A stretch of DNA of 64,000 nucleotides, taken from the IMG/VR virus record IMGVR_UViG_3300036780_000171, positions 1 to 64,000 of that record; one strand, given 5' to 3'. Positions 3,848 through 52,287 of this stretch are shown one piece after another. Below the pieces are notes generated by a model that searched no databases, had not been told where the DNA came from, and saw only the letters and a program-made list of their open reading frames with translations. Source of the stretch: a virus. Position numbers and translations under genes: made by a program. Position 1 is the stretch's first letter. The number at the start of each line of letters is the position of its first letter.

Positions 3848-3889
3848 AACGAAGCTAACACTGTAGTTCGTGCTATATTATGACATATA

Positions 3890-5170
3890 TCACGAGACTG
3901 TGCCAGTCCCGATTATGCTGAAACTGCTAGCAAAATGAGCGTGGAAGTTCATACGTGAAACGGCACGCAAAGCTGTCATGTCCTGTTCAGCCAAGTTAAT
4001 GGTTGTGCCATCACTTCCCTGAATAGTACCCTCAAGCAATGTGGTCAGTTGTAGACCGCGCTTCATGATGAGATATGCATAGCTCATGTCACCGAAAGCA
4101 ATGAAGCCCTTGTTGTTCGCGTCTTGTCCAAGACCTGGAAGAACCTCTGTCAGCGTGTACGGGTAACCCCAAATCGTACCGTCTGCCACACCGTTTGGAC
4201 CGGGTGACCAGATGTAACGACCGTAGTTATCCTTAATACGCTGGATAAGGCCGAGCAGAGTCTTTTCGAAGTAGAACCGGCCATTTTTCATCGCCGGTGT
4301 CGGGATGTTGTAAATGGCTTGGTTCAAATGATCGAAGGTCAGGCTAGTAACACTGGAGCCAACCGGCACAGTGAATACTCCAGATTGGTGGAATAGACCT
4401 GTGGTTGGGTCAAGAAATCCTAGATAGTCCTGCCAACGAGCATTTTCACGAGCATAGTCAATGGTCAATTCATTGTAAACATTAACGGGGCTGTCCTGCA
4501 CAAGTTCGTCAGAAAGCGCGGCAATGGCAGCGAACTTACGAAGCGGAATGAGCGTTTGCCCAAACTGCATCTTAGTACCGCTCTTTGCAGCACCTTCCGC
4601 GATTTCGTACATTGAAACCGAACCAGTCTTTTTGTTGAGTGTAACAGCGTTGCTGTTTGTCTCATAAAGCCGTGCGAACTGACGCACAACACCAAATTGC
4701 TCTTCAAGGCGAATAACATCGGCCAAGAAGTCGGCTGGTGGAACAAGGTACGCACCATCTGCAGAAGTACCAGTAGCTTCACCCAAGTATCCGGCCTTAA
4801 CTTGCGTATCAATGGCTTCGGCGTTCAAATCGCTCAAGGCTTTGCGGTCATCTGTATAGATGGCCTTCACCTGCTCGAAGAAGAAACGTTCCTTACCAAG
4901 AGACTCAAGTTTAGACTTTACGGTTACTACAGGTTTCACATCTTTGTCGGTCGCGCCCGGGTTTGTAGCATCCTTGCGAACTACGCCCTCGATACTTTCC
5001 AGCTTCTTTTCAACCATTTCGTCAACGCTGCCTTTTACAGCTTCGTCAACCATGGTTTTTAGAGCCGGTGCCAACTCGGCAGCAATAGCTTTAGCTACGG
5101 CATCATCAACCTCGATAACGTCATCTTTCTTGTCTTTGACGTCGTCAGCAGTTGTTGTTTGCTTACTCAT
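3890..5170 (-). CDS. Major capsid protein, HK97 fold
   Basis: GAYLVP, IAEG, LSDEL..DS, KDNYGRYIW, TIWGYPY, FGD motifs; follows prohead protease. Confidence 0.92.
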   Translation of the reverse strand: MSKQTTTADDVKDKKDDVIEVDDAVAKAIAAELAPALKTMVDEAVKGSVDEMVEKKLESIEGVVRKDATNPGATDKDVKPVVTVKSKLESLGKERFFFEQVKAIYTDDRKALSDLNAEAIDTQVKAGYLGEATGTSADGAYLVPPADFLADVIRLEEQFGVVRQFARLYETNSNAVTLNKKTGSVSMYEIAEGAAKSGTKMQFGQTLIPLRKFAAIAALSDELVQDSPVNVYNELTIDYARENARWQDYLGFLDPTTGLFHQSGVFTVPVGSSVTSLTFDHLNQAIYNIPTPAMKNGRFYFEKTLLGLIQRIKDNYGRYIWSPGPNGVADGTIWGYPYTLTEVLPGLGQDANNKGFIAFGDMSYAYLIMKRGLQLTTLLEGTIQGSDGTTINLAEQDMTALRAVSRMNFHAHFASSFSIIGTGTVS

Positions 5171-5211: not shown

Positions 5212-7089
5212 TTAGTGAAGCGCCTTTAGCTCATTGAGTACCAGCTCGACTACTCTGTCACCGGCTTGAGCCGTCTTCTTGGCTTGTGCCAAGACTACTC
5301 TGCGCTTTCGCACTTCCGCGTGAGTATCAGCGTTTGTGGTATCGAGGGAGTTCACCTTGGACTCCAACGCCACAGCTATCTTCGTAAAGGTAGCGGCTAA
5401 TTGTTTTAGATTATCGTCAGAAAGTTTGCTGATGTCAAGTTTTTTTAAATCGTCAAGTGAACGAACGGTATTGGACGCTTGTGGGTTATCATTGCCGCCG
5501 GTTGACATGGCGTGCTCGCCCATGTCGCCACCATCACCCATGCCCATATCGCCAGCACCGTTGCGGTTACCGCTTTGCTCATCATCTTGGTGGTCTTCAT
5601 CAGGATTTGGTACGCCAAGCGCTTGTGACATGTCTACTTGTAACTGGTCAACAATTTTATCTACTTGTGAAATGGCTTGCAGCACGTTCAGCCACAGATT
5701 TTCATTGTTATTGTCATCGTCCTTGCCAACCAAGGCTTTGCCAGGCTGTACGTTCGCATCGTTATTATTACCAGTAACAACAGTATTGGAAGGCGATGGT
5801 GTTGGCGGATTTTGTGGATTATTGCCACCGGCCGGAGCGGGTTGTTCAGGCTGTGGCTGCAGCGGGTCAGGTTCCATGCTGTCGTCCTTGGTAATGGCTA
5901 CTAATAGTTCTTTGCGACGCTCTGTAGTAACTCCCTTTTTAAGCGACTGGCTAGAGTAAACGGTTTCATCGTCTTCGGGTGTATCGTCGTCATCAGGTGG
6001 GGTATAGCTGCCATCAGCGACTTGCCCGAGCAGACCAGCAGTTTCCTTGAGTAAATCGTTAAAATTTTCGGCCGGTGTATCAGGCGAGCAGTATACGTCA
6101 ACAAATGCCCACCAAATATCCATGACACCATCAAGGTTTTGGTACTTTTCGTCAAGCTCCTGTTCCTCGGCTATCTCATCAGCCACCGCGCCTTTATCAA
6201 CAATTTCGTCGGTAATAGCTTTCATATCAGGCACATCTTTGTCAAATTTCTTATAATATTTTTTAATTTGAGCATATACGGCCGATTTATCACTTTCTGG
6301 AATATTCACGCCACCACGAGCGCCATTTACCGCACCCATAGCCGCGCTGACACCATTCCAAACGGCTTTCAAGCTGCCGTCCATAACTTGAGCAAATGGT
6401 AACTTATATCCGCCTTGTTTGTCGGCATTTTCAGGGTCAACCCAAAAGAAGGCTTTGCGATACTTGCTAAAGTCAATATTACCATCGCTATCGCTTGCCC
6501 ATTCCTTAACAGAACTAATGGCCTTGCCCTTATCCCAAGCAGTACCTTCATCAGCGACTGGCAAGTCGCTTGAAATAGCACCCTTGAAAACCACATGGAT
6601 ATACTTGGCTTCTTTTTGCGTCAGATTCAGACCACGGGTCGTAATAGCTGCTAAAGCATTCGCCGGAACAGGTACCACACTAAATTCTGCCATCTCACTT
6701 TTAGTATACGTATCACCATCAATTTCCTCGGGAACAAAGCCAATCGAAAGCGCACAAACACCTTCTTTAATAACCTTACTTACAAAAGATGCTTGCGGAT
6801 TAAAATCAGTAAATAGTTTAAATCTGGATAATAGCTCACCAGTTTTTGTTTTAGTCAGACTAATAGCTTTGCCAATAATATTTTCCGAGTGCTCGTAATC
6901 GTGGCCGAAAAGGACAATCGGGTTGGTGGTAATAAAGGCGTGTGTATCCAAGCCGCTAACCTGGATTTTCTCACCTTGACGGTCAAGGTCACTGGTGGCC
7001 ACGATACCTTCAAACGTACCATCGCCTAAGTCTTTTACTTTTGTAAAGTTTCCGTCTAGGTAAAGCCGCTTAGCGTTCGTTACTTTCAT
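5212..7089 (-). CDS. HK97-type prohead protease with inserted domain and acidic scaffold-like C-terminus
   Basis: DRQGE, VLFGHD, LSIGF, EFSVVPVPAN motifs. Confidence 0.88.
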   Translation of the reverse strand: MKVTNAKRLYLDGNFTKVKDLGDGTFEGIVATSDLDRQGEKIQVSGLDTHAFITTNPIVLFGHDYEHSENIIGKAISLTKTKTGELLSRFKLFTDFNPQASFVSKVIKEGVCALSIGFVPEEIDGDTYTKSEMAEFSVVPVPANALAAITTRGLNLTQKEAKYIHVVFKGAISSDLPVADEGTAWDKGKAISSVKEWASDSDGNIDFSKYRKAFFWVDPENADKQGGYKLPFAQVMDGSLKAVWNGVSAAMGAVNGARGGVNIPESDKSAVYAQIKKYYKKFDKDVPDMKAITDEIVDKGAVADEIAEEQELDEKYQNLDGVMDIWWAFVDVYCSPDTPAENFNDLLKETAGLLGQVADGSYTPPDDDDTPEDDETVYSSQSLKKGVTTERRKELLVAITKDDSMEPDPLQPQPEQPAPAGGNNPQNPPTPSPSNTVVTGNNNDANVQPGKALVGKDDDNNNENLWLNVLQAISQVDKIVDQLQVDMSQALGVPNPDEDHQDDEQSGNRNGAGDMGMGDGGDMGEHAMSTGGNDNPQASNTVRSLDDLKKLDISKLSDDNLKQLAATFTKIAVALESKVNSLDTTNADTHAEVRKRRVVLAQAKKTAQAGDRVVELVLNELKALH

Positions 7090-7341: not shown

Positions 7342-7666
7342 TATTGTTGGCTAATGCTTCTATACGCAGTGTCGATGATTCACGTTCGTTGCTCGCGTAA
7401 TTAATCTGTAGTATACCACGGTATACGCCGGGTTCAGGGCAATCAGCACCACCGGCTGTCCAACGATAGATACACTGGCCTGCCACCGGCTCGCTGATGG
7501 TACAAGAGTTGGAAGTATCATTGGTATTCTGGCCGGTTTTTAAATCACGTATCAGAAATTTAACGGTCGCGCTAGTCAGATTAACGATACTGCCATCGGT
7601 ACGCAAACAAGTGAATGTTATATCAGGAGCGCTATCACCGGCGACAATCTGGATAATTGGTTGCAT
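7328..7666 (-). CDS. BppU N-terminal-like virion protein
   Basis: GDSAPDITFT...VNLTSATVKF...GQCIYRW...PGVYRG pattern. Confidence 0.6.
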   Translation of the reverse strand: MQPIIQIVAGDSAPDITFTCLRTDGSIVNLTSATVKFLIRDLKTGQNTNDTSNSCTISEPVAGQCIYRWTAGGADCPEPGVYRGILQINYASNERESSTLRIEALANNNDQS

Positions 7667-18877: not shown

Positions 18878-19633
18878 ATGCCAAGAATTTATAATAATGG
18901 TATGGCTTTTCCTAGAGGTCGAAGACACCCGAATAATACAAGAGTAACCATATACTGCGAAGTTTGTGGCAAGAGTCGCGAGTTGCCACGCTGTCACTAT
19001 AAACGAGGTAATGGTAGATTTTGTAGCAAGGCTTGCCATAACAAAAGCATGCAAGGTACCACTGCCCATAACAATAAACAAGTAGAGATAGTATGCGAAT
19101 TATGCGGCAAAGCTTTCAAAGTTCGACCAAGTAGGATTGGTCGAAGTAAATATTGCAGTATAGCTTGTGCCAACAAAGGTAAAGTCGAACTAATGCGTCG
19201 GGTTGCTGTGTATAGCTTTAATATAAATTCCACCAAGCGCACGAACATTGAAGTTAAGATGGCAGAATTACTAAGTATCTGTAATATAACTTACATTGAA
19301 CAAGAACCCTTGTACGAAAAATGGATAGCTGACTTTGTGCTTTATAGATTTGGCATTGTTATCTTTTGCGACGGTATTTACTGGCATAGTAAACCGAAAG
19401 TCGCGGCAAAAGATAAAGGTCAGACAAGATACTTAGAAAAGTGTGGGTGGAAAGTACTTAGATTTACCGATAAAGAAATTCTTAAAGCACCAGAGTATTG
19501 TATAAGCAAGATACTTGCAAATTTAACTCCTTCTACCGTAGCTTTGCCATCACAGCAATCACCCACAGACACTACAAACTGGGACAATAGACTTTTTACT
19601 GCACCGGATGGCAGCTTATTGTATTACGGGTAG
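18878..19633 (+). CDS. DUF559/Vsr-like endonuclease with Zn fingers
   Basis: CEVCG...FCS repeats; TNIE, ADF, CDGIYWH, GWKVLRF; antisense to the operon. Confidence 0.8.
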   Translation: MPRIYNNGMAFPRGRRHPNNTRVTIYCEVCGKSRELPRCHYKRGNGRFCSKACHNKSMQGTTAHNNKQVEIVCELCGKAFKVRPSRIGRSKYCSIACANKGKVELMRRVAVYSFNINSTKRTNIEVKMAELLSICNITYIEQEPLYEKWIADFVLYRFGIVIFCDGIYWHSKPKVAAKDKGQTRYLEKCGWKVLRFTDKEILKAPEYCISKILANLTPSTVALPSQQSPTDTTNWDNRLFTAPDGSLLYYG

Positions 19634-22156
19634 CACAGTACACATACAGTTCGGGTGAAGCCCTGCAGCTTGTATATCTTCGTAGTCAATTAATAATGTG
19701 CCTCCATCAACACCAGTTATTGACTGGCCTTTGCTAACGAAAGCGTCGCTATTTGGAACTATACTACCATTTAAAGCCTCACAAAATTGGCAAGGGTCTG
19801 GCCCTGCTGCGTAGTATTCCTTAGCAATTACAAAACCTGACTGAATATAAGCATCAACAGCTGCCGAGTTGGCTTCATGCATGGTTTCGGTGCGGGCAAT
19901 GCGAACACTACGGTAGCCCATTGCTTGGCCGAATACGTCATCAATTTCCTTTGACAAGTCTTTTAGTGATAGCCCTTGGTTATAGCCACTTTTAATAACA
20001 GAAATAAGTTTGGCTTGCGTTTCTTCACTAAAATCTTTGGCAACCTTTTCCACGCGCTGGGTAATGCGGTCAATGCTTGATTGGCTTAACTCGAACTTAA
20101 TTGAACTATCAACAATATTCGTGGCTGATTGGCCAGACTGTTTCATAAGTTCAATTAGCAATGGCATCATATTCGTTGACATTTGTGCAACAAAGCCATC
20201 ACCGCCAAAATCTAAGGTATCGGGGTCGGGCTGGTCTTGCTGGTCATTAGCAGCCTTGCGCCGTGGCTTGGTGGCTACGAGCAGGCCATGTACTTTCAGA
20301 CGTTGGTCACCAACCGCATTTTTCATTAAGTCAATGACTTGCGGTTGATAGGCCTGTGCCATTTTGACAATGCCAAGCCTATAGTTTTCTTTTGCGGCCA
20401 CGCTTAGTGGGAGCGGCTTGTAAGCTTTTTTTTTAGATTTTAGTATCAGCTTCTTTTTAGCTGATTTCTTTTCTTCGGCATGACGATATCTACCTTTTTC
20501 ATCGACCCATATATTCGGGCTATCTTCACGGCCATCACAAGGAACCGGCTCTTTGGCTTCTTCACTATTAACGTAGCCACTAGCGTCACAACGGTAACAT
20601 TCGAAGCCGGTTTCATAATGCTCGCCCTTTGAATCGCAGCATTCACAAGCTATGCTGCCTTTTGGAATTTCAGCGCCATAGGCAGTCTGTGCTTTTTTAG
20701 CAGGCTTCACCTTGACATGCTTTTTAATAATACTAGTAATCGCCAATTGTGTTGCGTCGGCTGTTGCGCCACCGGCATCGCCCACACTGGTTTCGCCGCC
20801 ACTTTGTGATGCTTCATTGCCACCGTCACTATTATCATCGGGTGAACCACCGCCGCCTTGGTTAGTCTGGTCATCGCTTCCGCTATTGCCAAAACCGGTA
20901 GTATCAGTGGTTTCCATATTGGTTTTTACTTCAAGTGGTACCAAGTTAAGCGGAACCATCAAAGTATCACCGCCATCGAATGACTGCAAGCCTTCCAAAG
21001 CACGTACTTCGTTTGGTGTCATAAATGGCATGGTCGGGCCGACAGCTTGCTTATAGTAGGCAATTTTCTCGTCGTTATCTTGTGGAATTGGCGACTTGTA
21101 GGTAACGGCCAGATTATCTTTGTATTTCTGGTTGTAGAAGGTTTGGATAAAGTCGACCAGCCGGTTCATTTTTGGGTCAATGACCCGCTTGGCAAAAATA
21201 TATTCTGCTGTTTTGGCACTGGCATAGTTAACGTTTTCGGTAATACCAAGGATAGGCTTCGAAACGCGGAACATAAACATAATGTCATCACGAGTCATGG
21301 TTTTTAGCTCGCTCAAGTTAATATCAGAGAACGTGCTGCCAATCTTGGTATAGTTCGCATCCACATTACGAAGAAAGGCTGTCTTGCCCGCATTTTGGAC
21401 ATCACCATACTCACGACGCCACTGGCGCTTAATTTTCTCGAATTCTGGTTCAGGAATAGTGCCTTTGAAATTTACTATACCGGCTGGTGTGGCATTATTA
21501 GCCAAGAAGTTACGGCTATAACGCGAGGTATATTCCTCGGTTTGGATATAGACAATACCGGCTTGCACCGTACCCATACCACGATAGGGATTAATCGGGT
21601 TGGGCATCTTAAAGTGAATGACTTCGTCAAGTTCGAGTGGCACTTGCACGCGGCCATTCCATTTATGGTAGATATAGCCGGAAACTTCGCCCGTTTCCTG
21701 GTTATAGACAATCTGCACCAAGTCAGGCCGCATAATCCATAATTCTTTTGGCTTGGCAGTAATAGTACCTTTTGGCACGTACCAAAAGGCTTCACCGGCC
21801 AGCTCGATATGTGTTTGTGTCATTTCAATGAACTCATACGAGCTTTGGGTGGGATTCGGATGTTTTAATAATTCCAAAAACGGATGCTGCTTGGTATATG
21901 GTGCTAATGAGTCATCGGCTTGCTTGGTCGCCAACTGAAACTCAATACGGGCTACATCTTCGGCAATAGCACTTACGCAGGCATATGTAATGCCCGTGTA
22001 CTTTTCGAGTTGCTCAAGCTCACCAACCAAGTTGTTTGGATTAAACCATTGACTAAAAAACGACAATGGCCCGACATCGCTAATAATGTTTGCCAAACCA
22101 TTTAAAAGTTTAGTTCTGATATTTTTTACACCGTTAGATAAAAAGTTTGGCATCAA
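19616..22156 (-). CDS. Portal protein fused to minor head (Mu gpF/SPP1 gp7-like) domain
   Basis: LLKHPNP, GEAFW, VIHFK, NATPAG, TPNEVR; C-terminal RIARTE...CQFC...LHPNCMC. Confidence 0.88.
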   Translation of the reverse strand: MMPNFLSNGVKNIRTKLLNGLANIISDVGPLSFFSQWFNPNNLVGELEQLEKYTGITYACVSAIAEDVARIEFQLATKQADDSLAPYTKQHPFLELLKHPNPTQSSYEFIEMTQTHIELAGEAFWYVPKGTITAKPKELWIMRPDLVQIVYNQETGEVSGYIYHKWNGRVQVPLELDEVIHFKMPNPINPYRGMGTVQAGIVYIQTEEYTSRYSRNFLANNATPAGIVNFKGTIPEPEFEKIKRQWRREYGDVQNAGKTAFLRNVDANYTKIGSTFSDINLSELKTMTRDDIMFMFRVSKPILGITENVNYASAKTAEYIFAKRVIDPKMNRLVDFIQTFYNQKYKDNLAVTYKSPIPQDNDEKIAYYKQAVGPTMPFMTPNEVRALEGLQSFDGGDTLMVPLNLVPLEVKTNMETTDTTGFGNSGSDDQTNQGGGGSPDDNSDGGNEASQSGGETSVGDAGGATADATQLAITSIIKKHVKVKPAKKAQTAYGAEIPKGSIACECCDSKGEHYETGFECYRCDASGYVNSEEAKEPVPCDGREDSPNIWVDEKGRYRHAEEKKSAKKKLILKSKKKAYKPLPLSVAAKENYRLGIVKMAQAYQPQVIDLMKNAVGDQRLKVHGLLVATKPRRKAANDQQDQPDPDTLDFGGDGFVAQMSTNMMPLLIELMKQSGQSATNIVDSSIKFELSQSSIDRITQRVEKVAKDFSEETQAKLISVIKSGYNQGLSLKDLSKEIDDVFGQAMGYRSVRIARTETMHEANSAAVDAYIQSGFVIAKEYYAAGPDPCQFCEALNGSIVPNSDAFVSKGQSITGVDGGTLLIDYEDIQAAGLHPNCMCTVLPVIQ

Positions 22157-22214
22157 TGCTTTCCTGGTTCTAAAGTTTATAATACCAGTTTAAGCTATTT
22201 ATAACCAAAATACT

Positions 22215-22724
22215 CTAGTTATTGAGTAGTGGTGCAAAGTATTTTTTTTCAGCAATCCTACGAGCATTAATTGCAGCTTGTTTTTCAATGTAGTAACCAA
22301 GTGTTATTTGTTTACCGTTTAGTCCTATTCTAACACGCCATCTTCGTTGGCTTTGAACCCAGTACACACCTTTTGTACCAGATTTATTATTGTTTTGGAT
22401 TCTTCTATTAATTTGTTGAACTGTTCGACTTACCCATCGGCAGTTAAAAAGCCAACTATGTGTTTTACATTCACTACACTTTCCACAAGTATAATTATCA
22501 TTATTATTTTTTCGGTCAAGGGTATAGTTACTAGGTCGTTCACCCATATCTTCTGTAAAGTTATCTAAGCCGTTATTTTCTCGCCATCTTTCACAAACTT
22601 TAATACCCCGACCACCATAATCTTTATATCTCTTATGCTTTGTATTATAACAACGCTGAAGCATGTCTTGATATATCTGTCCTAAGGGGTTTTTCGGTAT
22701 ATGAGTACGCCTATGATAATTCAT
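22215..22724 (-). CDS. HNH-AP2 endonuclease
   Basis: RCY...YGGRGIKVCERW, TLDR, NCRW; AP2 C-terminus. Confidence 0.85.
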   Translation of the reverse strand: MNYHRRTHIPKNPLGQIYQDMLQRCYNTKHKRYKDYGGRGIKVCERWRENNGLDNFTEDMGERPSNYTLDRKNNNDNYTCGKCSECKTHSWLFNCRWVSRTVQQINRRIQNNNKSGTKGVYWVQSQRRWRVRIGLNGKQITLGYYIEKQAAINARRIAEKKYFAPLLNN

Positions 22725-22743
22725 AATCTATATTATAGCATAC

Positions 22744-22899
22744 TTACCATATTTTTTCAATTTTAGCGCATAAATAGCCTACTATTAGTATAGCAGCGGT
22801 AAATAAGGCCATACCAATATTAGAAAATATTGCTATGAGAAAACAAATAATAAATACGAAGATGCCATACCATCTGGAAATTGCAACGCGTTTATTCAT
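22744..22899 (-). CDS. Small membrane protein (51 aa)
   Basis: Hand-translated, two hydrophobic segments, GAGG RBS. Confidence 0.4.
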   Translation of the reverse strand: MNKRVAISRWYGIFVFIICFLIAIFSNIGMALFTAAILIVGYLCAKIEKIW

Positions 22900-22905
22900 G
22901 GTACC

Positions 22906-23046
22906 TCAATTTAAAAGTAAGGCATGGCTATATCGAGCCTGGTTAATAGCTTGATTTATTGAATCATTTATATACAAGCAACACATGACTACAGTTAAAA
23001 TAACACATATAGCTATGACCGGTAAGCTGAAAAGAACATTTTTCAT
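22906..23046 (-). CDS. Small membrane protein (46 aa)
   Basis: Hand-translated, hydrophobic N-terminus. Confidence 0.35.
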   Translation of the reverse strand: MKNVLFSLPVIAICVILTVVMCCLYINDSINQAINQARYSHALLLN

Positions 23047-23100
23047 AATTAAGCTCTTATCATTAGTATAAATTCGTAACAGATATAAAACAAGAAAATA

Positions 23101-23129
23101 TTGATAATTTTACACTCGTGCTATATAAT
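23101..23129 (+). promoter_or_regulatory. Promoter of tRNA array 1
   Basis: TTGATA-17-TATAAT; ATG 6 nt downstream. Confidence 0.8.
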
Positions 23130-23135
23130 AAAAAT

Positions 23136-23198
23136 ATGGCTAAACTAAACGTATTATCAAGTTCGTTTTATCTCTTGGAAACTCCAGAGGTCTATTAG
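23136..23198 (+). CDS. Attenuator leader peptide 1, MAKLNVLSSSFYLLETPEVY
   Basis: Leaderless 20-codon ORF; codons 7-14 TTA TCA AGT TCG TTT TAT CTC TTG match array amino acids; contains the antiterminator strand. Confidence 0.8.
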   Translation: MAKLNVLSSSFYLLETPEVY

Positions 23199-23255
23199 CC
23201 ATATGCTAACTTGGTACGAGAATAAAACCTCTGGAATTTAACCAGAGGTTTTTTT
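23183..23255 (+). terminator. Attenuator 1 antiterminator/terminator
   Basis: Terminator AAAACCTCTGG (23224-34)/CCAGAGGTTTT (23242-52) plus T run; TCCAGAGGT (23183-91) competes for ACCTCTGGA (23227-35). Confidence 0.85.
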
Positions 23256-23264
23256 AATACCTAA

Positions 23265-23339
23265 TGCCTTGTAGCTCAACAGTAGAGCATCGGCCCGAAG
23301 AACCGAGTGTAGTGGGGGCAGCACCCACCGAGGCAACCA
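23265..23339 (+). tRNA. tRNA-Phe(GAA), atypical
   Basis: Cloverleaf with CCA end; loop CC-GAA-GA; T loop GGCAGCA. Confidence 0.75.
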
Positions 23340-23342
23340 TAA

Positions 23343-23430
23343 TCGGGAGCGGCGAAGATGGCGAGTCGCAGCAGTCTGTAAAACTGTTGTCCTTGTGGCT
23401 AAATAGGTTCGAATCCTATCTCCCGAACCA
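23343..23430 (+). tRNA. tRNA-Tyr(GTA)
   Basis: GCAGT-CT-GTA-AA-ACTGT, long V arm, TTCGAAT, CCA. Confidence 0.9.
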
Positions 23431-23431
23431 T

Positions 23432-23509
23432 GCTCATGTGGCGCAACTGGTAGACGCAAACGGCTCAAACCCGTTCCAACTACAGGTTCGAATCCTGTCA
23501 TGAGTACCA
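23432..23509 (+). tRNA. tRNA-Leu(CAA), short variable arm
   Basis: AACGG-CT-CAA-AC-CCGTT, TTCGAAT, CCA. Confidence 0.9.
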
Positions 23510-23510
23510 A

Positions 23511-23587
23511 GCCCCGGTGACGGAACTGGCATACGTACTTGGCTTAGAACCAAGGTTTTAGGGGTTCGACTCCCCTCTGGGGTACCA
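23511..23587 (+). tRNA. tRNA-Leu(TAG), short variable arm
   Basis: CTTGG-CT-TAG-AA-CCAAG, TTCGACT, CCA. Confidence 0.9.
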
Positions 23588-23593
23588 ATTTAT

Positions 23594-23677
23594 GCGTCGT
23601 TGGCGGAACAGGTATACGCAGTCGGCTTAAACCCGATGCCGCAAGGTTTACTGGTTCGAATCCAGTACGGCGTACCA
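23594..23677 (+). tRNA. tRNA-Leu(TAA)
   Basis: GTCGG-CT-TAA-AC-CCGAT, long V arm, TTCGAAT, CCA. Confidence 0.9.
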
Positions 23678-23683
23678 AAATAT

Positions 23684-23771
23684 GGAGGGTCGCAAGGCTG
23701 GCGTGCTTATCGGTTTTGAAAACCGTGATGGGGTAAAACCTGTGGGGAATCGTTCTCTCCACCCTCCGCCA
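23684..23771 (+). tRNA. tRNA-Ser(TGA), atypical T loop
   Basis: GGAGGGT/ACCCTCC-G-CCA; TT-TGA-AA loop; long V arm; T loop ATCGTTC. Confidence 0.8.
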
Positions 23772-23797
23772 AGTACCATCTGAAAACTGGAAATTAG

Positions 23798-23883
23798 GGT
23801 GAGTGAACTGGTTGGGAATCAGCTTTGTTTGCTAAACAAATGGCACCGCAAGGTGTGAGTGTCGGGAACTCCGCTCACCGCCA
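23798..23883 (+). tRNA. tRNA-Ser(GCT), degenerate T arm
   Basis: GGTGAGT/GCTCACC-G-CCA; TTTGT-TT-GCT-AA-ACAAA; long V arm. Confidence 0.7.
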
Positions 23884-23898
23884 TGTTATAATCAGAAT

Positions 23899-24036
23899 AT
23901 GTTGGAATTTATAATTTTAATTCTAGTCTTGCTTTGGGTTGGCGGCTTATTGGCAAATGTTGGCGGCTTAATAAATCTGTTGCTCATAGTTATTCTGGTC
24001 TTAGTGATTGTTAAGCTTGCACAGCGTGCCAGATAG
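23899..24036 (+). CDS. lmo0937/DUF5670-like small membrane protein (45 aa)
   Basis: MLEFIILILVLLWVGGLLANVGGLINLLLIVILVLVIVKLAQRAR; TGT-TATAAT 6 nt upstream. Confidence 0.7.
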   Translation: MLEFIILILVLLWVGGLLANVGGLINLLLIVILVLVIVKLAQRAR

Positions 24037-24049
24037 CTTATAATCAAAA

Positions 24050-24171
24050 GTGCAACTACTCTTAGTTGCAGGGTGAGTCATGGGGTGGCCTTTTGAAAAA
24101 ACCACTTGCGTTGAACTGAAACGAGCTTTTATCGACCGGGGCTTGGTAGCAGGAAGCAAGTGGTTTTTTCA
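24050..24171 (+). ncRNA. Candidate structured small RNA
   Basis: TTGCAC-16-TATAAT upstream; 8-bp hairpin 24051-70; 16-bp inverted repeat 24094-109/24156-171. Confidence 0.35.
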
Positions 24172-24179
24172 TGGCAAAG

Positions 24180-24210
24180 AAAAAAGGCCAGATTTTCGCT
24201 GGCCTTTTTT
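24180..24210. terminator. Bidirectional terminator between the convergent tRNA arrays
   Basis: AAAAAAGGCCAG...CTGGCCTTTTTT. Confidence 0.85.
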
Positions 24211-24229
24211 ACTCACATATAAGATTCTC

Positions 24230-24305
24230 TGGTTGCGGGAACACGAGAGTTGAACTCGCTTAAGAAGCCTTATGAGAGCTTCGAGATACCGACCTGCCGC
24301 CCGCA
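24230..24305 (-). tRNA. tRNA-CAT (Ile2 or Met), atypical
   Basis: GAAGCT-CT-CAT-AA-GGCTTC; TTCAACT; CCA; reduced D arm. Confidence 0.65.
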
Positions 24306-24322
24306 TTATTAATTATATCATA

Positions 24323-24397
24323 TGGTTCAGGTGCTTGGATTCGAACCAAGATTGCGTGAGTCAAAGTCACGAGTCCTACCTATTAGACGACTCCTGA
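24323..24397 (-). tRNA. tRNA-Gln(TTG)
   Basis: CGTGA-CT-TTG-AC-TCACG; TTCGAAT; CCA. Confidence 0.88.
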
Positions 24398-24398
24398 T

Positions 24399-24475
24399 TG
24401 GTTGGCGAGGTTGGATTCGAACCAACGAATTACCAAGTTCAGAGCTTGGAGCCTTACCAGCTTGGCCACTCGCCA
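24399..24475 (-). tRNA. tRNA-Gln(CTG)
   Basis: CCAAG-CT-CTG-AA-CTTGG; TTCGAAT; CCA. Confidence 0.88.
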
Positions 24476-24547
24476 TGGTACACCTAGTCGGATTTGAACC
24501 GAACATCAAGGCTTAGAACACCTTTTCACCTGTCCTGGGCTGGGTGC
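24476..24547 (-). tRNA. tRNA-Arg(TCT), degenerate
   Basis: AAGGT-GT-TCT-AA-GCCTT; TTCAAAT; CCA; weak D arm and acceptor mismatch. Confidence 0.6.
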
Positions 24548-24548
24548 T

Positions 24549-24623
24549 TGGAGGGCTAGGAGAATTTCGAAATCTCGACTGCCGCATTAAGAGTGCGGTT
24601 CTCTGCCTCTGAGTTACTAGCCC
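24549..24623 (-). tRNA. tRNA-Lys(CTT)
   Basis: GGGCTAG/CTAGCCC; CCGCA-CT-CTT-AA-TGCGG; CCA. Confidence 0.85.
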
Positions 24624-25029
24624 GTTTTCTGCGCCCAGTACGCCAGCGATATTTATTCTGACTATCTGCCGAAGCTCTCTTACAAGCATTACATCGACAG
24701 CCATATTTATATCCTGTATATGTACCATGGATTAAATGTCGTTTTCTTCTTCCAGCTAACCTACCTTTACGAGAAGCATCTTGCATATTGTCAGCGCGTG
24801 TACCAAGAAATAAATGGCTAGGGTTTACGCATATCTTATTGTCACATTTATGGCATACATCAATTCCTTTGGGTATATCCCCGTTAGAAATAATCCATGA
24901 AACACGATGTGTGTCAATAACTTTTTTGCCGACTTTAAAACAGCCATAGCCATTTTTAGTACGTCTTGCGGCCATCCATAGCCAGCAATTGCTAGATTTA
25001 TCGACTTTAAGCCAAAAACGCTTCTCCAT
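24556..25029 (-). CDS. HNH homing endonuclease inserted in tRNA array 2
   Basis: [37 protein letters not shown]; reads into tRNA-Lys. Confidence 0.9.
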
Positions 25030-25037
25030 TGGTCGTC

Positions 25038-25066
25038 ATTATAGCACGAACCTTTTTAATGTACAA
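25038..25066 (-). promoter_or_regulatory. Internal promoter of the HNH gene
   Basis: TTGTAC-17-TATAAT with TG extension. Confidence 0.7.
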
Positions 25067-25069
25067 TAT

Positions 25070-25145
25070 TGGTCAGGGTTGCAGGCTTTGCTCCCGCCGC
25101 CTCTGAGTCCCAAACCCAGCGCTCTACTAAATGAGCTAAACCCTG
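25070..25145 (-). tRNA. tRNA-Pro(TGG), atypical T loop
   Basis: CTGGG-TT-TGG-GA-CTCAG; T loop AGCAAAG; CCA. Confidence 0.8.
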
Positions 25146-25148
25146 ATA

Positions 25149-25219
25149 TGGCACCGGTGTAAGGGTTCGAACCTCATCTCGCAGTTTTGGAGGCTGCTAC
25201 GCTCCTAAGCGTCACCGAT
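25149..25219 (-). tRNA. tRNA-Trp(CCA)
   Basis: GCAGC-CT-CCA-AA-ACTGC; TTCGAAC; CCA; short D arm. Confidence 0.78.
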
Positions 25220-25222
25220 ACG

Positions 25223-25292
25223 AAAAAACCGCCCTTGTGTAGGCGGTTTCCTTTGCTATGTTAAGAATTCTGACTATGCTAAGAAACCACCC
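25223..25292 (-). terminator. Attenuator 2 antiterminator/terminator
   Basis: Terminator AAACCGCCT/GGGCGGTTT plus T run; GGGTGGTTTCTT (25292-81, in leader ORF) pairs with AGGAAACCGCCT. Confidence 0.82.
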
Positions 25293-25348
25293 GTGCTAAT
25301 CGGATTATCGTGCTTCCACACGCGGACTGGTTTACATATGTTAGCCAT
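25274..25348 (-). CDS. Attenuator leader peptide 2, MANICKPVRVWKHDNPISTGGFLA
   Basis: Leaderless 24-codon ORF; same TATAATAAAAATATGGCTAA start context as leader 1. Confidence 0.75.
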   Translation of the reverse strand: MANICKPVRVWKHDNPISTGGFLA

Positions 25349-25354
25349 ATTTTT

Positions 25355-25383
25355 ATTATATGGTAGTGAATAAAAAAAATCAA
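25355..25383 (-). promoter_or_regulatory. Promoter of tRNA array 2
   Basis: TTGATT-17-TATAAT. Confidence 0.8.
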
Positions 25384-25386
25384 GTC

Positions 25387-26793
25387 CTACATAAATACCA
25401 CATCATTTGCCGTTACTGCTACAGTGTTACTAAATGTCATTGAAGCGGCATCGGCTATGTCAGGACTAGCAATACCACGTTTGCCAAGCTCTTCCTTTGG
25501 CTCAATTTTCACTCGGCTGGCGCTATCCGGCTTATAGTTAATTAAGCTAATCTGATAAAATTCTTCGGTTTTAACAATTTTGCCGCCGCCCTTTACCCAC
25601 TGGCCAAGTAACCAGTATGCTTCCGCGCGCAAGTTAGCATAGCTGTCTTTTTCGTATGCTGTAGTTCCGCCTTTGAATGTATTGACTACTATATTTCGTT
25701 CGGCCAAACGGTTGCCCACGCCATGACCCACGCCGCTATCGTCAACCGTAACGTCTGTGCTGGTTATCTCGTATTCTTTCATATAGCCTTCAATCCGGCC
25801 GACTTGTGCCATTAAATCAGGGTCACGGTTCTTTTCTAGCAAGCGCATATAATTGTCGTAACGCAGCACAAACGTGGTGTAGTTACTTCCACCGGCCGCG
25901 ATGTCAACACCTAAGCGCGGCCGACCCACGGGGCGCGGTATTTGTAGCTCGGCATCTTCGTATGCTCTCTCAAGGTCACTATCCGTAACCAGCTTCCGCC
26001 AGCCCTGCTCATTAACTTCATCTTCTTCGGGGAATTGGCAAGCATAGAGAATATCGAAAAAGGCTTCATTTCGCATTTCCTCGATAAAGGCTTCGCTATA
26101 GCGATTTTCTCTAAGTGCCTGCACATAGTCGATAAAAATACGGAAATAGCGGCCATTGTTCCATGTCCGGTGGAAGTGATTGCGATAAAATGGGTTGCCA
26201 ATTTTGAGCAAGAAGCTATCTTGCTGACCACCAAGCATACGCATAACCATGCTCTGTAGGTCATCTGGAATCAGCGCTGACTCGTCTTCTATAATATTTG
26301 GGCTACCAAAGCCAGTTAATGACTCTTTCACGCGTTGGCGGTTGCGAGAGTCGGCTGTAAAGGTACGTATGCCGCCGCCGCCTTTCCAAGTCACCTGTCG
26401 CTTATTTCTGGTACGACGCAATTTATCTAGCGGTTCGTTCGGGTCAAGCTCAAGCTGGCTATAGAATTGTTCATGGTCGAATGAGTGCTGTATCACCTTT
26501 TCCATAATAATCTGCGACTTTGGTTCTGACCCCGTCACAATAGCAAACTGCTCATGAAAGGCTTGGCTACGCACGATTAAAGCCATCGCCACCGTTGAGC
26601 TTTTACCATACTGTGTGCTGGCAATAACCTGCACCCGTTGGTGGTCTTTTATAAATATGACATTAAAAATATCTGCCTGGCCGTCTGTTAATTCAAACGG
26701 TAAGCCTTTATCATCTCTAAAATAGCGTCTAACTATTTGCTTCGCTATTTCCCGATTCTGCTGTCTCGCTTGGCTCGTCGTCGGCATTTTCAA
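25387..26793 (-). CDS. Terminase large subunit
   Basis: Walker A STQYGKS, IIEDE, IGNP, GVDIA, VDDSGVG, SPDIADA. Confidence 0.92.
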   Translation of the reverse strand: MKMPTTSQARQQNREIAKQIVRRYFRDDKGLPFELTDGQADIFNVIFIKDHQRVQVIASTQYGKSSTVAMALIVRSQAFHEQFAIVTGSEPKSQIIMEKVIQHSFDHEQFYSQLELDPNEPLDKLRRTRNKRQVTWKGGGGIRTFTADSRNRQRVKESLTGFGSPNIIEDESALIPDDLQSMVMRMLGGQQDSFLLKIGNPFYRNHFHRTWNNGRYFRIFIDYVQALRENRYSEAFIEEMRNEAFFDILYACQFPEEDEVNEQGWRKLVTDSDLERAYEDAELQIPRPVGRPRLGVDIAAGGSNYTTFVLRYDNYMRLLEKNRDPDLMAQVGRIEGYMKEYEITSTDVTVDDSGVGHGVGNRLAERNIVVNTFKGGTTAYEKDSYANLRAEAYWLLGQWVKGGGKIVKTEEFYQISLINYKPDSASRVKIEPKEELGKRGIASPDIADAASMTFSNTVAVTANDVVFM

Positions 26794-44688: not shown

Positions 44689-45039
44689 TTATTTAGATTT
44701 ACTACATGTATCAGAACACCAGCGAGTCCGATGTCCTGTTAACGTTTTACCACATCGTTCACACGTTAAACGTGAGCCGTTTTTAAGTTTTTGCTCAATC
44801 TTTTTATCACGGACAAGACCAATGCTTTGTTCAAAGGTTTTATCCCGTGCCTCACGTACTAATTCATGCCTAATTTGCCGATAATGGGTTCTGTAGCGTA
44901 AGTCATAGGCTAACATTTTTAATTCAAGCTTGAGTGAAGCCCTGAGATAATCCGCTTTTGTTGGTGTTTGTTGTTCTGGCTCATCTGCTACTAGTTCGCC
45001 GTCGATATATATTTTTAGTGGTTGTGTTTGTGTGACCAT
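44689..45039 (-). CDS. Hypothetical protein with C-terminal Zn finger
   Basis: CERCG...WCSDTC; leaderless TTGACA-17-TATAAT. Confidence 0.55.
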   Translation of the reverse strand: MVTQTQPLKIYIDGELVADEPEQQTPTKADYLRASLKLELKMLAYDLRYRTHYRQIRHELVREARDKTFEQSIGLVRDKKIEQKLKNGSRLTCERCGKTLTGHRTRWCSDTCSKSK

Positions 45040-51591: not shown

Positions 51592-52287
51592 ATGAGTACA
51601 GCAACCCAAGACGCATTACTAAAACAACTAAAAAACCCTTTTGACCCAAAATTCGTTAAATGGCGTATAGGGTCAACCACCCAAGATAAAACTAAGGGTC
51701 AGGCCGTAGCATATATTGATGCCCGTGAAGTCAGAAAGCGGTTTGACGAAGTATGTCGTATTGGCGGTTGGCAAGATAGACTTATTCCTTGCACCGATGG
51801 CTTTATATGTGAAATATCAGTACTGATTGATGATAAGTGGACTACTAAGACAAATGCTGCGGGCTACACAAAGGTCGAAGCTGTAAAGGGTGGTGCTTCC
51901 GACGCTTTCAAGCGAGCGGCTACAATGTTTGGCGTGGGCGTTTATCTCTATTATCTACCGAAAATTTGGTTGCCCATTAAGCAAGCCGGTAAATCGTATG
52001 TGCTTGCGGAAATACCAGAACTACCCGATTGGGCGCTACCTGGCAAAGTCGAAAATTGGGAAGATATTGCCGAAATGGAAACCGATTTGAGTTCCGGCGA
52101 AGATGATATTGACGTTGATACTATCGTGTCAGTAGTCGACACGCTGCGGGCAGCGCAAACCAAAACAGAACTGGCAGAGCTTATCAAAAACCTATCGCCA
52201 GATGATAGGCTTATTTATGCTAACCAAATAGAAGTTAAGCGCAAGGAGTTAGAACACAATGCAAAGATTAACTCCGATAACAATTAA
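51592..52287 (+). CDS. Rad52/22-like (Sak) ssDNA annealing protein
   Basis: PF...VKWR...AYIDAR...KGGASDAFKRAA..FGVG.YLY. Confidence 0.88.
   Translation: MSTATQDALLKQLKNPFDPKFVKWRIGSTTQDKTKGQAVAYIDAREVRKRFDEVCRIGGWQDRLIPCTDGFICEISVLIDDKWTTKTNAAGYTKVEAVKGGASDAFKRAATMFGVGVYLYYLPKIWLPIKQAGKSYVLAEIPELPDWALPGKVENWEDIAEMETDLSSGEDDIDVDTIVSVVDTLRAAQTKTELAELIKNLSPDDRLIYANQIEVKRKELEHNAKINSDNN

Follow-up and report, generated by a model that had tools for sequence, protein, structure and literature searches.

A predicted leaderless attenuator before a phage tRNA array, with leader codons that match the anticodons of the array

The window analysed here comprises the first 64 kb (64,000 nucleotides) of an 83,461-bp IMG/VR phage record with direct terminal repeats (IMGVR_UViG_3300036780_000171). 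At positions 23101–23883 it carries a promoter, a 20-codon open reading frame (ORF), an intrinsic terminator and an array of seven tRNA genes (array 1). Segments of the ORF and the terminator can form mutually exclusive RNA pairings, and both these pairings and the agreement between the codons of the ORF and the anticodons of the array depart from what randomised sequences give. With rather better than even confidence, we favour a model whereby 23101–23883 is one transcription unit (unit 1), in which read-through of the terminator into the tRNA genes is set by translation of the ORF, acting as a leaderless leader. In this model, the phage probably makes the seven tRNAs only when ribosomes decode the leader codons slowly.

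The original prediction, made from the bare sequence, had placed a promoter of the form TTGATA-17-TATAAT 6 nucleotides (nt) ahead of the 20-codon ORF, and this was confirmed. The promoter is of the sigma-70 type (23101–23129, + strand), agrees with the consensus at 11 of 12 positions and is the best + strand site within 21–27 kb. Since the genes to the left run on the − strand, it is also the sole + strand promoter upstream of array 1. The −10 box is followed, after the 6-nt spacer AAAAAT, by the ATG at 23136, which opens the leader ORF (MAKLNVLSSSFYLLETPEVY; 23136–23198, +), made up of 20 sense codons followed by TAG at 23196–23198. The A of this ATG, 6 nt past the −10 box, occupies the position expected for the start of transcription. 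Unit 1 therefore has one of the features of an attenuator, namely a short ORF directly after the promoter with a usable, though predicted and leaderless, start.

Initiation of leader 1 at the first transcribed base is credible in the light of what is seen elsewhere in this genome, and the leader is presumably translated from there. Of 36 ATGs lying 5–8 nt past a TANAAT box, 12 begin an ORF of 100 codons or more, compared with 11.7% of all ATGs in the genome (p = 6e-4), and the ATGs with long ORFs include those of both HNH genes of the tRNA module as well as several genes of 150–360 codons. Long genes that start 6–7 nt past a TATAAT box were noted, for example, at 51592, 59260 and 66364 on the + strand and at 45039, 43575, 40187, 31599 and 3788 on the − strand. 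Since there are many of these, leaderless mRNAs appear to be a common mode of expression in this phage. Additionally, the exact 20-mer TATAATAAAAATATGGCTAA, which consists of TATAAT, AAAAAT and ATGGCTAA, occurs in ten unrelated IMG/VR phage contigs (L010–L019), each time opening a long ORF (MAK.. or MAN..). None of these ten phages has a leader-terminator unit at tRNAs, and the recurrence of the 20-mer suggests a shared, favoured context for leaderless starts.

The predicted intrinsic terminator was likewise found (regions 3 and 4; 23224–23255, +). Its 5′ arm (23226–23234) and 3′ arm (23242–23250) form the stem AACCTCTGG/CCAGAGGTT with a 7-nt loop, followed by seven T residues to 23255, and the isolated hairpin is calculated at −15.3 kcal/mol. 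As in an attenuator, it lies between the leader and the first regulated gene, ending 9 nt before tRNA-Phe. Because this gap is so short, and because there is no other promoter upstream, the tRNAs of array 1 would be made only via read-through of the terminator. Inside the ORF, region 2 (TCCAGAGGT; 23183–23191, +) runs from the last nucleotide of codon 16 through codon 19, and is both an exact 9-nt copy of the terminator 3′ arm and the exact complement of ACCTCTGGA at 23227–23235. The claim that this segment pairs with the terminator 5′ arm held up well: the duplex is calculated at −16.5 kcal/mol, compared with −7.0 ± 1.8 kcal/mol in dinucleotide shuffles, and 0/2000 shuffles reached it. Unit 1 thus has a further feature of attenuators, in that its 2:3 and 3:4 pairings are mutually exclusive and region 2 lies near the end of the ORF.

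The leader 1 RNA has a predicted fold of −37.6 kcal/mol (z = −5.3 versus shuffles). In the free RNA, a start-stop helix encloses a hairpin between region 1 and region 2, and the terminator forms as well. The 5′ strand of the closing helix (ATGGCTAA; 23136–23143, +) pairs with TTAGCCAT at 23195–23202, which contains the stop codon; the helix is present in both the minimum free energy and the centroid structures, and would sequester the start codon in untranslated RNA. An analogous pairing between start and stop regions was found in leader 2, the leader of the paralogous unit described below. Region 1 (ATCTCTTGGA; 23170–23179, +) covers codons 12–15, and it is this segment that pairs with region 2 in folds of the free RNA.

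When the footprint of a ribosome was masked in the full transcript, the equilibrium fold retained the terminator as the minimum at every ribosome position. The switch must therefore be kinetic, as in trp, where the terminator of the leader also wins at equilibrium and the choice is a kinetic one. Since the decision in attenuation is kinetic, the equilibrium fold of the whole leader was set aside as a test, and RNA cut just before region 4 was folded instead. In this truncated RNA, region 2 stays locked to region 1 in the absence of a ribosome. With the ribosomal A site at codons 1–13 the 9-bp antiterminator forms, and with the A site anywhere from codon 14 to the stop codon region 2 is covered and the antiterminator is absent. 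Folding with ribosome masking, which had been put forward as a check, thus gave the expected switch in RNA cut before region 4, but not in the full transcript, where the terminator always persisted. These models support a classical logic, in which a lack of translation or fast translation would lead to termination, and a stall early in the leader would lead to read-through. Taken with the z-score, the antiterminator pairing and the enrichment of leaderless starts, they also support the trp/his-type geometry that had been claimed for this region.

The codon content of the leader was scored with standard wobble rules over the 19 codons after the start. As originally proposed, every array 1 anticodon has a cognate codon in leader 1 (7/7), and this exceeds what is expected both from random ORFs drawn from phage codon usage (p = 0.0027) and from shuffles of the leader's own bases (p = 0.012); among all genome ATG ORFs of 15–30 codons, 6/413 reach it. 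Cognate codons make up 9 of the 19 scored (p = 0.005). The proposed sensor codons 7–14 (TTA, TCA, AGT, TCG, TTT, TAT, CTC and TTG; 23154–23177, +) were correctly described as eight consecutive Leu/Ser/Phe/Tyr codons, and all but CTC (7/8) are cognate to array 1. A run of this length has p = 7e-5, and p = 2.5e-6 jointly with full coverage. As a control, leader 1 was compared with array 2, where it matches just 1/7 anticodons. We also noted that the first cognate codons in leader 1 (23145–23177), in the order CTA, TTA, TCA, AGT, TTT, TAT and TTG, correspond to tRNA genes 4, 5, 6, 7, 1, 2 and 3. This is a perfect cyclic rotation of the gene order, with a chance of 7/5040 for a pattern that was seen post hoc; leader 2 has no such order.

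From these parts we infer the following sequence of events. RNA polymerase would start at the A of the ATG, and a ribosome would bind the 5′-terminal AUG. A fast ribosome, on reaching codon 14 or beyond or the stop codon, would cover region 2, allowing the terminator to form and ending transcription before tRNA-Phe. With no ribosome on the RNA, the start-stop helix and the hairpin between regions 1 and 2 would lock region 2 away, again giving termination. In contrast, a ribosome lingering in codons 1–13 would leave region 2 free to pair with the emerging 5′ arm, and polymerase would then enter the tRNA genes. The Leu/Ser/Phe/Tyr run of codons 7–14 would provide a probe for every anticodon of array 1. 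Once made, the tRNAs would let ribosomes decode the leader faster and thereby turn the unit off again, creating a closed loop that would hold the seven decoding capacities at a sufficient level.

All seven tRNA genes named in the original prediction are present (23265–23883, + strand), although they differ in how firmly they are called. tRNA-Tyr (GTA; 23343–23430) and the three leucine tRNAs (CAA, 23432–23509; TAG, 23511–23587; TAA, 23594–23677) are firm, being found by both ARAGORN at its default setting and Rfam (44–54 bits). The first gene, tRNA-Phe (GAA; 23265–23339), is non-canonical: its T-loop reads GGCAGCA, and its anticodon loop either has C33 or is 9 nt long. It was not called by ARAGORN, and among the search tools only Rfam detected it (39.2 bits, over 23265–23336), in agreement with its fold. 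tRNA-Ser (TGA; 23684–23771), of class II and with the T-loop ATCGTTC, was called only by relaxed ARAGORN (90% threshold), alongside its fold and a sub-threshold match to the Rfam tRNA-Sec model. The last gene is a class II tRNA-Ser (GCT) candidate (23798–23883) with the T-loop GTCGGGA. Neither ARAGORN nor Rfam called it, but it folds unaided into a class II cloverleaf that ends in GCCA and has UUGCUAA as its anticodon loop. The non-canonical T-loops of the Phe, Ser-TGA and Ser-GCT tRNAs, and that of tRNA-Pro in array 2 (AGCAAAG), occur despite intact stems and CCA ends. In the first gene of each array (Phe and Trp) a C-A mismatch closes the anticodon stem, or else the anticodon loop has 9 nt. 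Across the two arrays, ARAGORN at its default setting misses 5/14 tRNAs.

Further evidence for the switch comes from a paralogous unit (unit 2) on array 2, which lies on the − strand and converges on array 1. Its promoter is TTGATT-17-TATAAT (25355–25383, −), and a 21-nt stretch, ATATAATAAAAATATGGCTAA, which extends through ATGGCTAA, is identical between the two units. Leader ORF 2 (MANICKPVRVWKHDNPISTGGFLA; 25274–25348, −) has 24 codons. The intrinsic terminator of unit 2 (25223–25252, −) ends 3 nt before the first gene of array 2, tRNA-Trp (CCA; 25219–25149, −), which is followed by tRNA-Pro (TGG; 25145–25070, −). Here, too, the end of the leader mimics the 3′ arm of its own terminator: region 2 of this unit (GGGTGGTTTCTT; 25281–25292, −), in codons 19–23, pairs with the terminator 5′ arm at −18.4 kcal/mol, a value reached by 7/2000 shuffles. 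The terminator and antiterminator of unit 2 are nevertheless unrelated in sequence to those of unit 1. When the leaders and arms were swapped between the units, the pairings fell from −16.5 and −18.4 kcal/mol to −5.4 and −8.3 kcal/mol, a loss of 8–11 kcal/mol. Since the two paralogues have co-varying antiterminators, the case that the switch is real is a strong one. Array 2 may also contain a tRNA-Arg (TCT) between its Lys and Gln genes (24480–24553, −); this candidate was called by ARAGORN at the 80% threshold only, and folds poorly alone.

We then looked beyond this genome in a small, unbiased survey of the tRNA regions of five cultured phages, seeking a terminator directly before a tRNA. 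The survey gave one strong match, Cellulophaga phage phi40:1. Units of the same design, which go unremarked in the database records, were found in this phage, in the Cellulophaga phages phi38:1 and Calle_1 and in Maribacter phage Panino. They belong to a Bacteroidota phage lineage unrelated to the phage analysed here, and their codon match is stronger still. Unit C of phi40:1 has a Bacteroidota-type promoter, a 29-codon ORF (MNVTLLHQEPLEQLRLPSRVPYYGIDELS) and a terminator of −18.7 kcal/mol, with tRNA-Pro 7 nt further on as the first gene of an array that continues with Glu, Gln, His, Leu and Arg. Codons 5–17 of its leader, LLHQEPLEQLRLP, are 13 consecutive codons that spell exactly the six amino acids of the array; no run as long was found in 400,000 random ORFs, and 6/6 anticodons are covered (p = 0.006). 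Two further units in phi40:1 (L048) have the same promoter, and the three units lie at 4655–4950, 6119–6345 and 7360–7565. One of them, unit A, has the leader MKTIMNIATDIRTKGVKLLGRSRVL before tRNAs for Lys, Ile, Gly, Met, Asp, Thr, Val and Arg, and covers 8/8 anticodons (p = 0.005 for the count of cognate codons).

Panino has a diverged homologue of the phi40:1 arrangement. The leader of its unit 1 (MKTQRLHQELEQPTNIGRDFYGVDGY) stands before tRNAs for Pro, Glu, Gln, His, Leu, Leu and Arg, and keeps a 10-codon run, QRLHQELEQP, which spells exactly the amino acids of the array. The leader of its unit 2 (MRAATGIAIIGRTKDKPLGRISVL) precedes Ala, Lys, Ile and Gly tRNAs, with Asp, Thr, Val and Met further on. 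The terminators of Panino differ from those of phi40:1, and region 2 of Panino unit 1 is matched to its own terminator. Indeed, phi40:1 units A and C and Panino unit 1 each have, within the ORF, a segment that mimics the arm of their own terminator (p = 0.004 to 0.009); in Panino unit 2 the arm pairing did not rise above shuffles (172/1000). In all three of the units with such a mimic, folds with the ribosome at successive positions gave the same early-stall window. Across the phage of the window, phi40:1 and Panino, the terminator arm finds its best partner in its own leader in 5/6 units.

The units of the Cellulophaga and Maribacter phages therefore resemble those of the window in having a promoter, a start at or near the first transcribed base, a mini-ORF that is rich in the amino acids of the array and contains a mimic of the terminator 3′ arm, and a terminator, here 7 nt before the first tRNA. 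Moreover, paralogous units in one genome share promoter and start. They differ in that their promoters are of the Bacteroidota type and their region 2 lies 5–8 codons before the stop, so that a ribosome at the stop codon does not mask it. As these phages share no sequence similarity with the window, the design has been observed in two independent lineages. The full set of features (promoter, mini-ORF, terminator, tRNA array, array-spelling leader and arm mimic within the ORF) is found in unit 1 of the window, units A and C of phi40:1 and unit 1 of Panino. These comparisons support codon-specific sensing for unit 1 and for the independent phages, but not for the sister unit 2.

Two other observations were made in these cultured phages. 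In phi40:1 (L048), neither ARAGORN nor Rfam called three unannotated tRNA-like sequences (4842–4915, 6345–6435 and 6715–6790), whose anticodon loops, judged by eye, are those of Ala-TGC, Tyr-GTA and Trp-CCA. Two of them directly follow the terminators of units A and B, and the first has a homologue in Panino that is an ordinary tRNA-Ala. In T5 (L020), one of the surveyed phages, the ORF T5.070 has 42 codons, including five Cys codons (CxxC...CxxC), and stops 6 nt short of tRNA-Cys, with no intervening terminator. This adjacency may be coincidence, as the pattern resembles a zinc ribbon.

Several findings weigh against the model of a codon-specific, translation-controlled unit. Besides the persistence of the terminator in full-transcript equilibrium folds, two of the seven array 1 tRNAs rest on weak calls. 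Most codons read by array 1 begin with U, so that a T-rich leader of any kind scores well, as reflected in the rise of the coverage p to 0.012 when the leader's own bases are shuffled. The window was chosen from a very large scan, so that a single p of 1e-4 is weaker than it appears. Leader 2 covers only 3/7 anticodons of array 2, which is at chance (p = 0.58), and its match to the two proximal tRNAs alone (Trp and Pro) has p = 0.15; its free truncated RNA already favours the antiterminator. Enrichment for codons that report on the regulated genes, a feature of attenuators, is thus seen in leader 1 but not in its paralogue, and because the match of leader 2 is not significant, codon matching within this genome is supported by unit 1 only. 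In the other four phages of the survey (T5, Aeromonas phage AhP_Mru1, Mesorhizobium phage Cp1R7A-A1 and Erwinia phage phiEa21-4), no tRNA was directly preceded by a strong terminator, the only candidates being two weak, AT-rich hairpins in the Aeromonas phage. The design is therefore not general, although these negatives are soft since the crude finder relies on ARAGORN calls and failed to pick up the window's own positive control. The closest relatives by large terminase (TerL) lack the whole tRNA module, leaving no orthologues in which to look for its conservation. Finally, among sequencing runs, the stretch was found in one soil metagenome DNA run only, probably the one from which it came, and in no RNA run.

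Some of these points would also be compatible with a translation-coupled attenuator that has no codon specificity. Such a unit would report the supply of ribosomes or the speed of elongation, with any slowdown or antibiotic-like stress raising read-through, and the Leu/Ser/Phe/Tyr run would be a by-product of a T-rich, structured leader. Consistent with this, leader 2 has the same switch without a significant codon match, a modelled stall anywhere in codons 1–13, and not just at the matched codons, frees the antiterminator, and the coverage p against the leader's own base composition is only 0.012. We nonetheless think it unlikely, given the improbability of the run of eight (p = 7e-5), the poor cross-match of leader 1 to the other array (1/7) and the phi40:1 and Panino leaders, which spell exactly the amino-acid sets of their own arrays.

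It also seems distinctly unlikely that the promoter drives a small RNA in its own right, some 120 nt long and finishing at the terminator, or that the terminator is just an insulator with constitutive leakage. In either case a fixed level of read-through would supply the tRNAs, and the alternative pairing would matter for the stability or processing of the RNA, or would respond to a protein or RNA factor and not to the ribosome. In favour of this view, the RNA is strongly structured (z = −5.3) and, like many small RNAs, has a single-stranded A/U-rich stretch ahead of a terminator with a U tail. Several Rfam small-RNA models gave alignments to the region, all below threshold, and the full transcript has the terminator as its equilibrium structure whatever the ribosome position. 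However, a small RNA does not need an ATG at the first base and an open frame that closes shortly after an arm mimic, an arrangement seen in both paralogues of this genome and in four units from other phages. It would also give no account of the codon enrichment, and no Rfam family reached its threshold. That the promoter, short frame and terminator are a chance combination devoid of regulatory meaning is highly improbable, since the antiterminator pairing was reached by 0/2000 shuffles, the pairing co-varies in the paralogue and the design recurs in unrelated phages, even allowing for the very large scan from which the window was selected and for the ~1.5% of random short ORFs in the genome that also cover seven anticodons.

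The attenuation model that we favour invites comparison with known systems. Leader-peptide transcription attenuators control enterobacterial amino-acid operons, as in trpL, hisL, pheL and leuL and in the multivalent thrL and ilvL. Unit 1 resembles these leaders in having a promoter-proximal mini-ORF enriched in the sensed codons, exclusive 1:2, 2:3 and 3:4 pairings, and an intrinsic terminator before the first regulated gene. In both cases a ribosome near the stop masks region 2 and untranslated RNA terminates, which for unit 1 is the outcome of the fold model; like ilvL and thrL, a single leader would sample several amino acids. Unit 1 is set apart from the known operon leaders because its downstream genes are tRNAs rather than genes for biosynthesis of the sensed amino acid, so that the product would feed back directly on decoding. 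Furthermore, it is phage-encoded and leaderless, without a Shine-Dalgarno sequence, and it samples isoacceptor codons, one or two of each, instead of a long run of a single codon.

Nor is unit 1 a sequence member of any Rfam leader family. The Phe_leader model (RF01859) aligned along its full length over 23135–23258, but at 32.4 bits against a gathering threshold of 55 bits, and the alignment rests on the ATG, the long-range helix and the terminator, which reflects layout and not homology. A degenerate tRNA or tRNA-like leader was set aside, as there was no Rfam tRNA match within 23130–23260. The pheST attenuator of Escherichia coli phenylalanyl-tRNA synthetase, with its pheM leader, is similar in that a leader peptide regulates a component of decoding according to the supply of charged tRNA; it is chromosomal, however, controls a synthetase and not tRNA genes, and senses a single amino acid. 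T-box riboswitches likewise use a terminator/antiterminator switch that responds to tRNA status, but they bind uncharged tRNA directly and need no translation. The unit 1 leader, of about 90 nt, has no Stem I, specifier or T-box motif, and a search of 23090–23345 gave no Rfam T-box match at E up to 10.

A full-text search of the published literature found no description of leader-peptide attenuation of tRNA genes. The nearest published example of a conditional tRNA array that we found is the trn operon of Anabaena sp. PCC 7120, a 26-gene array induced under translational stress (PMC8421152; PMC10272220). It, too, is an accessory tRNA array that is silent until translation is impaired. Its control is exerted at the promoter by the repressor TrcR and by direct repeats that overlie the −10 box, and no leader, attenuator or terminator is mentioned (PMC8421152; PMC10272220). 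This differs from the leader and terminator proposed here.

The phage genome has a G+C content of 42%. Both units lie in a 3.2-kb module (22200–25400) between the portal gene (19616–22156, −) and TerL (25387–26793, −), which, besides the two convergent tRNA arrays, contains two HNH genes and small membrane ORFs. A cluster of 7-deazaguanine genes and genes for HNH endonucleases also lie on the − strand. In the nearest relative found by TerL (67% identity; L001), TerL is followed by the portal gene with a gap of ~50 nt (3880–3940), and tRNAs were found at the locus in 0/22 TerL-related loci (7 from IMG/VR and 15 from metagenomes; identity at most 67%). Since the related loci have no tRNAs and the portal gene directly follows TerL, the module of tRNAs, HNH genes and small ORFs is an insertion peculiar to this phage. 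Searches of 23050–23900 against cultured phages by megablast and blastn revealed similarity only at the level of single tRNAs, and no exact match was found to either a 22-mer taken from the leader or a 36-mer taken from tRNA-Phe, the 36-mer probably being too long to be informative.

Between the arrays, array 1 is followed by a leaderless 45-codon hydrophobic ORF (ATG at 23899, within 23887–24036), whose TATAAT box (23887–23892) starts 4 nt past the CCA end of the last array 1 tRNA. A long hairpin with T-runs on both strands lies near 24100–24170, between the two convergent arrays. We also considered whether terminator 1 might serve the − strand, but the − strand unit is already stopped by terminators near 24100–24220.

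To our knowledge, almost nothing has been described of how the expression of phage tRNA genes is controlled. These genes are usually seen as constitutive helpers in codon usage, or as replacements for tRNAs cut by host defences, and phage tRNAs have been reported to counter tRNA-cleaving defences. The results presented above raise the broader idea, for which we see the case as evenly balanced, that blocks of phage tRNAs are under closed-loop, isoacceptor-resolved control. The multivalent leader of each block would sample exactly the decoding capacities that the block supplies, topping up tRNAs only when the host pool falls short through codon-usage mismatch, starvation or tRNA-cleaving defences. 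Such units would then make up a widespread, undescribed class of attenuator, present in lineages as unrelated as a soil phage of a sigma-70 host and marine Bacteroidota phages. The link to anticodon-nuclease defences in particular is speculative, if plausible. The design is carried by cultured systems (Cellulophaga phages phi38:1 and phi40:1 and Maribacter phage Panino), which makes it amenable to work at the bench. For phi38:1, an RNA-seq time course of infection in two hosts has reportedly been published. If the model is correct, it would provide compact codon-specific sensors for synthetic biology, as well as a sequence signature for annotating units whose leader ORFs are now labelled hypothetical proteins or missed. 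It would also offer a testable explanation of why phage tRNAs are grouped in blocks, and would represent the most direct feedback yet in translation control, whereby the ribosome measures the speed of decoding at selected codons and the output is the very tRNAs that read those codons.

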